Sequence record: NC_052653.1
Source of the DNA: Escherichia phage vB_vPM_PD06
Length of the DNA stretch: 64,000 nucleotides
Strand: one strand, 5' to 3'
Positions 27,282 through 29,366 of the stretch are shown here, piece by piece. Every line of letters begins with the position of its first letter. Positions within the stretch are counted from its first letter, which is position 1. The position numbers were made by a program, and so were the translations under genes. The notes beneath the pieces were generated by a model. The model searched no databases. It was given only the letters and a program-made list of their open reading frames with translations, and was not told the origin of the DNA.

Positions 27282-29366
27282 TTATCTTCCTCTGATACTA
27301 TATGGAGAAGATAAAGAGTTTCTTGATCTTCCACCCATCTTACCATACCCTGTTAATGCATTTGTTGCAGAAGGTATTGCTACTGCTTTAAACATCTGTT
27401 CTTTTGACAAAGTATTAAAGCAAGATGCAGCAGCATCTGGAATATCATCTTTTAATGTTGCTGTAGATCTTTCTCCATTAAACGACTCCATCTCTTTATA
27501 GAAATGATCAAGAGTTTCTTTGTTAGGGAAAGATTCTTCTACAATATAAACAAAACCATTTTGACAAGCACTACTAAATGGCATAAAGCGTTGTAACTTT
27601 TTCTTGTTACTAGGCATAGCGTCTGGTTTAACAACAAACCCTTCAGCAATTAGTTTTTTAGCTGATTCTGTATATTCAATCAAACCAGCACCAGAAGGAT
27701 CTTTTGGCAATACAACTGTAACTTCATCTCCATCAATCTTACATTGGTTTAGAATTAAATTATCTCGATCACCTGGTAGTCTTCTGAATCTACCAAAAAT
27801 TTTACTACCTTCATCGTGAGCATCATAATCATAATCACCAAAAATGTAATAATTTCCATCAGAGTCTTTAGCCATTTTAACAGATGTTGTGTAGTCAGGA
27901 TAACGATAAGATTCTGTTGGAACAGATACTGCTTTATCCCACGCTCGCATATACTTAAGATTGTTTGGTAAATCTTTAAACTTGATAACGTGTAACCATT
28001 CTCTGTTAAAGAAACTCTCTTCTTGTGCACGAGCAAACCAACAACCATCTAAAAGCTGTGCTCTCTTAACGGCGGTTTGAGCCTTCAAAGAAGCTAAGTA
28101 TTTAGGGTTAAGTCTTATCAGTTCAGGGTTATCAAAGATAGTACCACCAATGAACACAAATGTTTGTGGTTCAATAACCACTGTTTCACCTGTGTTTGGG
28201 TTTTGCATAAAGCAGTTTTCAGGATACTTTTCTTTCAACTCTTCTGCTGTTTCAGCAAATACTGGTTCATCTTGCACAATAAGAAAGTATAGCTGTTTGC
28301 CACACATATCTTCTCGTGGATAACCAGCTTCATCCAAATAAGGAAGTACCCATTTCAACACCCAACTATCAGCATCAGGGTTACAAGTACACAGCATAAA
28401 AGACGTTTCTGATTCAGAACGCATACGCCCTAACAGATACAGCATTTCATATTGTGTAAAATGTGTAAGTTCGTCAAACCCTACCATCGAATACTGTGTA
28501 CCTTGATGGTTAGTTTCAGCCGTTACGTTATCATTTTCAAGATGGTCAAATTTAAGTGTACCACCCTTTGTGGCTCTGAACTCCATCTCCATAGCCTGTT
28601 CTCTTACGTGAGGCTTTAATGGTAGATAAAGTTTTTTAGCTTCAGTAAACAAACCACCAGATTTACGTAAAGCTGTTGTATTTTTACGGAAAAGAATACC
28701 ACCAAACAGTGGATCTTTATATGCGTATTTAAGTGCTTTTAGAAGTAGCAGACGGCTTTTGCCGCTATTCCCAGTAACGAAGATGTGATCGCCACGTCTA
28801 AACACGACATAACTGCTTGGAGTTTCAAAGCAATATTTCTTATCATCACTTGTCATTACCTCATGAATTTTTAGATATGTGCTAGGTTTACCTTGAATGT
28901 TAAACGGAACACGTTTACCAAAAGGATTTTCAATATATCCTCGTAATGGGTGTCCTGCTTGCTGTAGTGCAATAAGATCCCCAACAAGAATTTCAAAATG
29001 TTTTTTGGATTTTTTCTTCTTGTAGAAAACAAAGCGATGTTCCATACTTAATTCTTGGAAGACACCTACTCCGTTTGTGATACAATACAGATTATCTTTA
29101 GCATCATATTCTACAAAAGATGGTGTAACTAATTCAAGACGTTTATTTCTTGGATTGTATTGATAAATATCCTCACCATCATATTCACTTATTTGTTTCC
29201 AACCGTCTCTTGTTAAGTATTCTGTTTCTGCTGAAACACAACCTGCCGCACCACCATAAATCATTACTTCAGGCATAAGATCCATAGCTAGTGTTTGTTT
29301 GCCAGGTTGGGCTTTAACTTCAATATCTACATTTTCAAAAGATTGTTTGACAGGTTTCCTTGCCAC
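27282..29366 (-). CDS. terL: terminase large subunit, intein-containing precursor
   Basis: 694 aa; after removing residues 43-200 the junction reads MIYGGAAG-SGKSRLLLL, a canonical Walker A GxxxxGKS. Confidence 0.7.
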   Translation of the reverse strand: MARKPVKQSFENVDIEVKAQPGKQTLAMDLMPEVMIYGGAAGCVSAETEYLTRDGWKQISEYDGEDIYQYNPRNKRLELVTPSFVEYDAKDNLYCITNGVGVFQELSMEHRFVFYKKKKSKKHFEILVGDLIALQQAGHPLRGYIENPFGKRVPFNIQGKPSTYLKIHEVMTSDDKKYCFETPSSYVVFRRGDHIFVTGNSGKSRLLLLKALKYAYKDPLFGGILFRKNTTALRKSGGLFTEAKKLYLPLKPHVREQAMEMEFRATKGGTLKFDHLENDNVTAETNHQGTQYSMVGFDELTHFTQYEMLYLLGRMRSESETSFMLCTCNPDADSWVLKWVLPYLDEAGYPREDMCGKQLYFLIVQDEPVFAETAEELKEKYPENCFMQNPNTGETVVIEPQTFVFIGGTIFDNPELIRLNPKYLASLKAQTAVKRAQLLDGCWFARAQEESFFNREWLHVIKFKDLPNNLKYMRAWDKAVSVPTESYRYPDYTTSVKMAKDSDGNYYIFGDYDYDAHDEGSKIFGRFRRLPGDRDNLILNQCKIDGDEVTVVLPKDPSGAGLIEYTESAKKLIAEGFVVKPDAMPSNKKKLQRFMPFSSACQNGFVYIVEESFPNKETLDHFYKEMESFNGERSTATLKDDIPDAAASCFNTLSKEQMFKAVAIPSATNALTGYGKMGGRSRNSLSSPYSIRGR
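28767..29240 (-). mobile_element. putative mini-intein (158 aa) in terminase Walker A motif
   Basis: Begins CVSAETEYLTRDGW (Cys1, block A-like), SMEH block B-like motif ~65 aa in, ends ...DHIFVTGN followed by Ser; no homing endonuclease domain. Confidence 0.55.

Follow-up and report, generated by a model that had tools for sequence, protein, structure and literature searches.

A putative mini-intein within the Walker A motif of the large terminase subunit of phi92-like coliphages

The stretch of Escherichia phage vB_vPM_PD06 DNA analysed here (64,000 nucleotides of record NC_052653.1; “the window”) encodes a large terminase subunit (TerL) whose “Walker A” loop, or P-loop, is interrupted by an insert of 158 residues at positions 28767-29240 of the minus strand. 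With a probability of roughly 0.9, this insert is a functional cis-splicing mini-intein which no longer contains its former homing endonuclease and which is inherited vertically in the phi92/phAPEC8 subfamily (Stephanstirmvirinae). A mini-intein at this location had been proposed from inspection of the sequence, and on computational grounds the proposal is upheld by the existence of insert-free orthologs, by conserved intein blocks, by a profile match to an intein of solved structure (PDB entry 6ZGQ), by the predicted fold and by purifying selection. Splicing itself is strongly expected, because the phages that carry the insert are viable, an interrupted P-loop cannot function, and the nearest characterized relative of the insert is active.

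The host gene is an open reading frame (ORF) at 27282-29366 (minus strand), identified by its translation, by Pfam and by homologs from phi92-like phages, which starts with GTG downstream of an AGGAGG ribosome-binding site and specifies a precursor of 694 residues with a computed mass of 79.2 kDa. The product is 99.7% identical to gp119 of phi92 and to the TerLs of about 50 phi92-like phages, and the source is a phi92-like coliphage of the genus Justusliebigvirus, subfamily Stephanstirmvirinae. The ORF encodes a large terminase subunit with an N-terminal P-loop ATPase domain and a C-terminal RNaseH-like nuclease domain, and it is adjacent to the portal gene, which is of the Mu type and lies directly downstream (25616-27184). 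The match to the Pfam family Terminase_6N improves from 1e-16 to 8e-19 when the insert is excised in silico, and it then begins at position 1 of the profile; the Terminase_6C match is weak (E 2.4e-4; 21.6 bits against a Pfam cutoff of 22.6 bits).

Reading the gene codon by codon places the insert exactly at TerL residues 43-200, in agreement with the sequence-only reading. Residue 43 is a Cys, encoded by tgt (coding strand) at 29238-29240, residue 200 is an Asn, and the residue which follows, at the “+1” position, is Ser201 (codon 28764-28766). The N-extein (residues 1-42; 29241-29366, minus strand) ends in MIYGGAAG, the first half of the Walker A motif, and in insert-free homologs the corresponding segment runs straight into SGKSR. 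The C-extein (residues 201-694 and the stop codon; 27282-28766, minus strand), delimited by translation, Pfam and homolog comparison, begins with S201-G-K-S, which supplies both the second half of the motif and Ser+1; the remainder of the ATPase domain follows, and then the RNaseH-like nuclease domain. Excision joins G39-A-A-G42 to S201-G-K-S204, so that the flanks read MIYGGAAG-SGKSRLLL and GAAGSGKS is rebuilt as a canonical P-loop of the form GxxxxGK[ST], as had been claimed. The computed mass of spliced TerL is 60.8 kDa, and the predicted junction peptide spanning the spliced flanks is QTLAMDLMPEVMIYGGAAGSGK (2240.6 Da).

Alignment with 120 TerL homologs shows the P-loop to be continuous, rather than missing, where the insert is absent: 45 of the homologs contain an uninterrupted GG[AS]AGSGKS. 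In 37 of the 120 an insert occupies the identical peptide bond (G42/S201 of the window's TerL), and every one of the 37 begins with Cys, ends with Gly-Asn and is followed by Ser; coincidence is thereby dismissed as the source of the pattern. Their lengths range from 146 to 328 residues and fall into classes of 146 residues (for example in Vibrio phage PWH3a-P1), 158-159 residues (phi92-like and phAPEC8-like phages) and 323-328 residues, with one insert each of 246 and 301 residues. Conservation was scored on 28 inserts which are only 22-35% identical to that of the window. C1, G13, W14, H68, D132, K135, Y136, C137, G157 and N158 (in insert numbering) are invariant among them, and S65 and T156 are nearly so, a pattern which, as judged from the alignment, fits four intein blocks: A, B with its S-x-x-H, F and G. 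The catalytic set, made up of C1, S65, H68, N158 and Ser+1, is thus conserved fully or almost fully.

The blocks can be located in the window, on the minus strand, as follows. Block A, CVSAETEYLTRDGW (29199-29240), contains Cys1, G13 and W14, whose invariance across the family bears out the block-A-like character which the N-terminus had been suspected to have. The core of block B is S65-M-E-H68-R69-F70 (29031-29048), which in the family alignment provides the Ser of position B:7, the His of B:10, the Arg of B:11 and the Phe of B:12. Block F starts with D132-D-K-K135-Y136-C137-F138 (28827-28847), in which Cys137 (codon 28830-28832) would be residue F:4. Block G ends with T156-G157-N158 (28767-28775), which sequence and family alignment assign to G:5, G:6 and G:7; Gly thus stands in the penultimate position usually held by His, as noted earlier. 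Cys137, which is conserved alongside Cys1, did not feature in the sequence-only reading.

Several homologs show other peculiarities at the same site. In Vibrio phage 1.063.O._10N.261.45.C7 (MG592441, 1-2357) the annotated TerL begins with M-GSGKSRLL, precisely at the intein insertion point; in-frame stop codons lie just upstream of this start, and the record opens with an ORF of the NUMOD4 (homing-endonuclease-type) kind. The arrangement resembles that of an intron or a free-standing endonuclease in the same P-loop-coding DNA site. Seven more homologs (P0050, P0045, P0058, P0087-P0089 and P0092) likewise begin at or just past the insertion point.

The relationship to known inteins emerges from the family as a whole. 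A profile of the 28 inserts matches the AceL NrdHF intein (6ZGQ) with an E-value of 1.1e-11, and it matches PolII, RecA and DnaB inteins weakly. An AlphaFold model of the insert computed on the same alignment has a predicted local distance difference test score (pLDDT) of 94.7 and a predicted template-modelling score of 0.87, and it is all-beta apart from one short helix; a Foldseek search of the PDB with this model returned HINT-fold proteins for all of the top 50 matches, with 6ZGQ first. Between blocks B and F the model contains only a strand-helix element (residues 81-94) and a hairpin (101-113). The conservation, the profile match and the model together describe a mini-intein of 158 residues (18.45 kDa) with a HINT fold, a length inside the range of roughly 130-200 residues expected of a splicing domain alone, and since it forms a single HINT domain there is no space in it for a homing endonuclease domain, as had been pointed out. 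A weak match of insert residues 3-42 to the WW domain of PRP40 was judged to be a chance beta-hairpin resemblance.

A number of observations weigh against the intein interpretation or against its details. Even at E<=10, neither the Pfam nor the NCBIfam intein models match the insert. A search of the PDB with the single sequence also found nothing, so that the link to inteins becomes visible only through the family profile and the predicted fold. The penultimate His (G:6) is absent, its place being taken by Gly157, and F:4 is a Cys instead of the Asp which is usual in class 1 inteins. The assignment of Cys137 to F:4 is itself based on spacing, secondary structure and overall structural similarity, not on a residue-level superposition. 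Cys137 sits 21 residues before the terminal Asn, within the model strand (134-139) that forms block F, and the same spacing from F:4 Cys to Asn occurs in the inteins MP-Be DnaB (C320-N341), Msm DnaB-1 (C118-N139) and Mle DnaB (C124-N145). A profile of the C-terminal 48 residues did not align block F to 6ZGQ, so the equivalence of Cys137 to Cys124 of that structure rests on spacing and fold. The sole matches of the 48-residue profile were the cell-wall-binding repeats of clostridial toxins (E ~2e-4), through the pattern DGxKY.F; the resemblance of DDKKYCF to the DGKKYYF core of these repeats was judged to be a short beta-hairpin coincidence, and the matches were set aside as chance. To these points is added the roughness of the selection estimates, given below.

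The doubt raised by Gly157 is resolved by the AceL NrdHF intein (6ZGQ; Hoffmann et al. 2020, PMC7891396), the closest characterized intein, which also ends in TGN/S, splices fast and is killed by the change of this Gly to His. It shares with the window intein the numbering of S65 (B:7), H68 (B:10) and R69 (B:11), a Cys at F:4 (C124) and the ending T144-G145-N146 with Ser+1; its B:12 residue is M70. It splices efficiently at 37 °C in proteins expressed in E. coli, where half of the reaction takes about 3.8 min at that temperature, the G145H substitution inactivates it, and Arg69 assists its C-terminal reaction (PMC7891396). More generally, the penultimate His is often missing from inteins of phages, and Gly in this position is documented (Kelley et al. 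2016, PMC5050341). By analogy, then, a penultimate Gly is normal for the lineage to which the window intein would belong. The two inteins nevertheless differ in several respects. Overall they are no more than about 20% identical; AceL NrdHF, which resides in a ribonucleotide reductase, is a naturally split intein whose halves flank a gene for a GIY-YIG endonuclease, whereas the window intein is contiguous and resides in TerL; and AceL NrdHF has Ala1 and is a proven class 3 intein, in which the block F Cys was found experimentally to be the sole nucleophile at the N-terminal junction, its modelled thiol lying 3.0 Å from the scissile carbonyl (PMC7891396), whereas the window intein has an invariant Cys1.

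A tblastn search with the insert found it complete in 131 phage genomes. Copies at least 99% identical to that of the window are present in 53 of these, all phi92-like phages, and copies 86-87% identical in 77, which are phAPEC8-like phages together with Klebsiella KP13-26 and Citrobacter Tr1; all listed records with the insert annotate the gene as just a terminase or a hypothetical protein. The 131 are sequenced, plaque-forming phages, and since a Walker A motif broken by 158 residues could not package DNA, their viability leads to the expectation that the insert is spliced out. The ratio of nonsynonymous to synonymous substitution rates (dN/dS) is 0.05-0.085 in the intein and 0.03-0.07 in the exteins, values which are rough because dS is saturated, exceeding 1 between the phi92-like and phAPEC8-like lineages. 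The guanine-plus-cytosine content of the insert (33-37%) is the same as that of the rest of the gene, and no sign of recent acquisition was found in the base composition. The insert is under purifying selection, and, given saturated dS, low dN/dS and a base composition which does not set it apart within the gene, it is an old element, inherited vertically and under selection. Such selection is to be expected if a phage in which splicing fails has no functional P-loop. No second copy of the insert was found in the window with the family model in six frames.

Some records and relatives deserve separate mention. Five records labelled “Campylobacter” phages match the window intein; among them MG065656.1 (“Campylobacter phage C3”, 146 kb), whose label names Campylobacter jejuni as the host, contains at 85908-86381 an intein 100% identical to it. 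These records look like phi92-like coliphage genomes, and their host label is doubtful. The S5 table of the BASEL collection (PMC8594841) lists two inteins and one intron for Bas60 and one intein and one intron for Bas62, so that phi92-like phages carry additional, variable inteins in other genes. In the window itself, the ribonucleotide reductase barrel of a NrdA-like ORF (52666-54927) is uninterrupted.

Longer relatives at the same TerL site retain an endonuclease. The model of a 327-residue metagenomic relative (P0023) has a pLDDT of 88.4 and consists of a splicing domain and a LAGLIDADG endonuclease; the whole model matches VMA inteins, PI-SceI and PI-PfuI (Foldseek, E 1e-13 to 1e-9), and its central domain matches I-DmoI and I-SceI. 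In sequence comparisons, the Pfam LAGLIDADG_3 match of the long relatives falls below threshold (E 0.012) and a profile of their central domain found no match among PDB sequences, so the endonuclease assignment derives from structure prediction and Foldseek, not from sequence models. The TerL of the Vequintavirinae coliphage vB_EcoM_TH18 contains a member of 329 residues at IIGGAAG/C...VVVTGN/SGKSY, with the motifs LRLQVAVMADG and HWDGS. These full-length forms share with the window intein the site GG.AG/C...GN/SGKS, the splicing blocks, KYCF and TGN, and differ from it by a LAGLIDADG domain of about 170 residues. A TerL intein noted in Acinetobacter phage TaPaz (residues 35-388; PMC8228797) is probably a further same-site relative, as judged from its published description and not from its sequence. 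Since the long same-site relatives carry LAGLIDADG, the window element is, on the basis of sequences and models, best described as a derivative of a mobile LAGLIDADG intein which has lost the endonuclease. The helix GDLIALQQA of the window insert was considered as an endonuclease remnant after MAFFT paired it with the first LAGLIDADG helix; this idea was dropped because comparison of the models places the helix at strand-helix 80-93 of the long form, before the endonuclease. In vB_EcoM_TH18 (ON075799, 2411-5156) the TerL gene is annotated as two coding sequences (2411-3757 and 3997-4413), the first of which stops inside the ATPase domain, and a gene for an HNH homing endonuclease comes next; the split suggests an intron or a further homing element in the same gene.

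The family also belongs to a much larger clade. Run against a set of 1.84 billion representative proteins, the family profile gave 11,951 matches at E<=1e-3, 2,982 at E<=1e-10 and 153 at E<=1e-30, and re-alignment of 148 newly retrieved proteins among the 150 matches listed yielded 182 complete domains, none of which is flagged by Pfam. Cys at A:1, His at B:10 and Asn at G:7 are present in all 182, Cys at F:4 in 179, Gly at G:6 in 178, Ser or Thr at B:7 in 174, and Thr or Ser at G:5 in 168. The +1 residue is Ser in 104 domains, Cys in 46 and Thr in 32, while B:12 is Trp in only two, the others having Val, Met, Ile, Phe or Leu. Most of the domains are 300-350 residues long, with only about ten mini-inteins among them, and 79 are inserted at G/[STC]GK[ST]. 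The proteins that host them, often with several copies each, include TerL, PhoH, primase-helicases, UvrD-like helicases, RtcB and MetK. RtcB is a second common phage home of the clade, in view of matches of the N-terminal 70 residues of the intein, at 33-34% identity, to the RtcB RNA-ligase genes of MN103543 (Pseudomonas phage PS119XW) and of NC_027355 and NC_027352 (Bacillus phages BCP8-2 and JBP901); many clade members of the representative set also lie in RtcB, at VGVDIG/CGM.

If the insert splices as expected, the reaction may be pictured in the following way. A 79-kDa precursor would be translated with its Walker A loop split, and folding of the HINT domain would place the two junctions side by side. 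With the aid of S65 and H68, the G42-C43 bond would undergo an acyl shift that produces a thioester, after which the N-extein would be passed to Ser201, either from Cys1 directly or by way of Cys137. Cyclization of Asn158, with Arg69 assisting in place of the penultimate His, would free the 18.5-kDa intein, and an O-to-N shift would restore the peptide bond; the resulting TerL, of 60.8 kDa and with its GAAGSGKS P-loop intact, would be able to bind ATP and to package DNA.

The step in this scheme which admits more than one version is the attack on the N-terminal junction. In class 1 inteins the nucleophile at position 1 starts the reaction, and Asp at F:4 and His at G:6 are typical. Class 3 inteins attack the N-terminal junction with the F:4 Cys, not with residue 1, and in view of the conserved Cys137 the mechanism of the window intein could be that of class 1 or be class 3-like. 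Given that the insert is an intein, the conservation pattern somewhat favours Cys1 as the first nucleophile, in the manner of class 1, because this residue is invariant; the active site would in that case include a second indispensable thiol, that of Cys137. Splicing of the class 3 type or by a relay, in which a branched thioester on Cys137 obligatorily precedes transfer to Ser201 and Cys1 is either dispensable or feeds Cys137, is the less probable version, though it retains an appreciable share of the probability. Two of the three positions of the class 3 signature Trp(B:12)-Cys(F:4)-Thr(G:5) are kept, as Cys137 and Thr156 in the window and in 179 and 168 (Thr or Ser), respectively, of the 182 clade domains; the window intein has Ser at +1, as do nearly all class 3 inteins; and inteins with Trp-Cys-Thr that keep Ser1 or Cys1 and yet splice by the class 3 route were reportedly described by Tori and Perler in 2011. 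AceL NrdHF, the closest characterized relative, uses the F:4 Cys as its only N-junction nucleophile in the presence of Ala1, and this proven class 3 intein likewise lacks the B:12 Trp (PMC7891396). On the other hand, invariance of Cys1 in all 182 domains would be unexpected if this residue were dispensable, and class 3 inteins normally lack it; the definition of class 3 in PMC7891396 requires that position 1 be neither Cys, Ser nor Thr, which excludes the window intein. The B:7 Ser/Thr and the plain hydrophobic residue at B:12 (Phe70 in the window) are also class 1-like, as is the Cys+1 found in 25% of the clade, which is almost unknown in class 3.

These mixed features permit a speculative synthesis, to which a fairly low probability is attached: the clade, with Cys1, an F:4 Cys and a Thr-Gly-Asn ending, may stand midway between class 1 and class 3 as a natural intermediate, in which both thiols act at the N-terminal junction through a relay from Cys1 to Cys137 or through a redox gate, AceL NrdHF with its Ala1 being an offshoot from which Cys1 was lost. 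Such an intermediate, if real, would contradict the argument of Beyer et al. (PMC7664689) that class 3 is unlikely to have diverged from class 1 and that functional intermediates are implausible, and the question could be put to the test in a phage of E. coli that can be cultured.

It is improbable that splicing is conditional, with a disulfide between Cys1 and Cys137 trapping the precursor so that the redox state gates the activity of the terminase and hence DNA packaging. The two nearly invariant Cys residues are both predicted, by analogy with the geometry of 6ZGQ, to lie at the N-terminal junction, and for one DnaB intein of class 3 a dependence of splicing on redox conditions has been documented (PMC6195587). 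The E. coli cytoplasm, however, is reducing, and a gate of this kind would be compatible with either splicing route as an additional, non-exclusive feature which replaces neither.

Bacterial intein-like (BIL) domains are HINT domains in variable protein regions, often lacking a +1 nucleophile, which mainly cleave; the insert, by contrast, is located in a conserved motif that is essential and is followed by Ser+1, and in the structural comparison BIL domains score below inteins. That the insert is a degenerate HINT domain which no longer splices, being retained as a structural or regulatory domain or merely cleaving in the manner of a BIL domain, is thus very improbable: the failure of the curated models, the missing penultimate His and the absence of an endonuclease to maintain the insert as a mobile element would fit it, but the GxxxxGK[ST] loop must be contiguous for ATP binding and is interrupted, cleavage without ligation would deprive TerL of its P-loop, all of the catalytic residues are kept at a dN/dS of about 0.06, the same residues recur in host proteins unrelated to one another, in hundreds of copies, with a +1 residue that is always one of Ser, Thr and Cys, and the closest relative with the same unusual residues is highly active.

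The splicing intein favoured here resembles two known groups without coinciding with either. Knowledge of inteins in the P-loops of terminases dates back to 2009 or earlier, and in mycobacteriophages such inteins are the commonest phage inteins (PMC5050341). The mycobacteriophage inteins TerL1-a/b (Kelley et al. 2016, PMC5050341) lie, like the window intein, in the Walker A loop of a terminase ATPase, and they splice when expressed in E. coli. Their host is a Terminase_1 protein rather than Terminase_6N, their site is the classic GK/[ST] rather than G/SGKS two residues upstream, and they belong either to class 1, F:4 being Asp, or to canonical class 3 with the Trp-Cys-Thr triplet, unlike the window intein, to which no sequence relationship was detected. 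The canonical class 3 inteins (MP-Be DnaB, Msm and Mch DnaB-1; PMC2807308, PMC7664689) share with the window intein the F:4 Cys 21 residues before the Asn, the G:5 Thr, a Ser or Thr at +1 and a preference for the P-loops of phage helicases and terminases, and differ from it in lacking a nucleophile at position 1, in requiring the B:12 Trp and in usually keeping the penultimate His; the family profile did not detect them, and their structures rank well below 6ZGQ.

The neighbourhood of TerL contains two overlapping small ORFs directly upstream (29375-30041, minus strand), one of which, of 109 residues, carries a lipoprotein signal (LMMTGC); in phage EmilieFrey the annotation of the equivalent pair is i-spanin and o-spanin. 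A cluster of 15 tRNA genes occupies 30883-33938 (minus strand), upstream of the genes for lysis and packaging, including two each of tRNA-Met, tRNA-Leu and tRNA-Ser.

Terminase P-loop inteins are thus well known as a kind; the window element is unannotated, and its two-cysteine active site is under-described. No description of this intein was found in the searchable literature on the TerLs of phi92, phAPEC8 and the Vequintavirinae, and according to a 2024 paper coliphage inteins had not been reported. The BASEL supplementary table (PMC8594841) gives zero inteins for Bas61 EmilieFrey, the TerL of which contains the insert. About 130 coliphage genomes, including those of the structural model phage phi92 and of BASEL phages Bas60-62, label the gene merely as “terminase large subunit” or “hypothetical protein”, and residues 43-200 should be left out when the TerLs of these phages are aligned, placed in phylogenies or modelled. 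As a putative compact, contiguous intein with Ser+1, suited by analogy to E. coli at 37 °C, the element is also a candidate tool for protein engineering. Beyond these phages, standard domain libraries overlook an intein clade of thousands of members, which joins a class 1 nucleophile to two of the three class 3 signature residues and whose nearest characterized relative is a proven class 3 intein, so that the window intein, native to a phage of E. coli, could reveal the origin of the class 3 mechanism.

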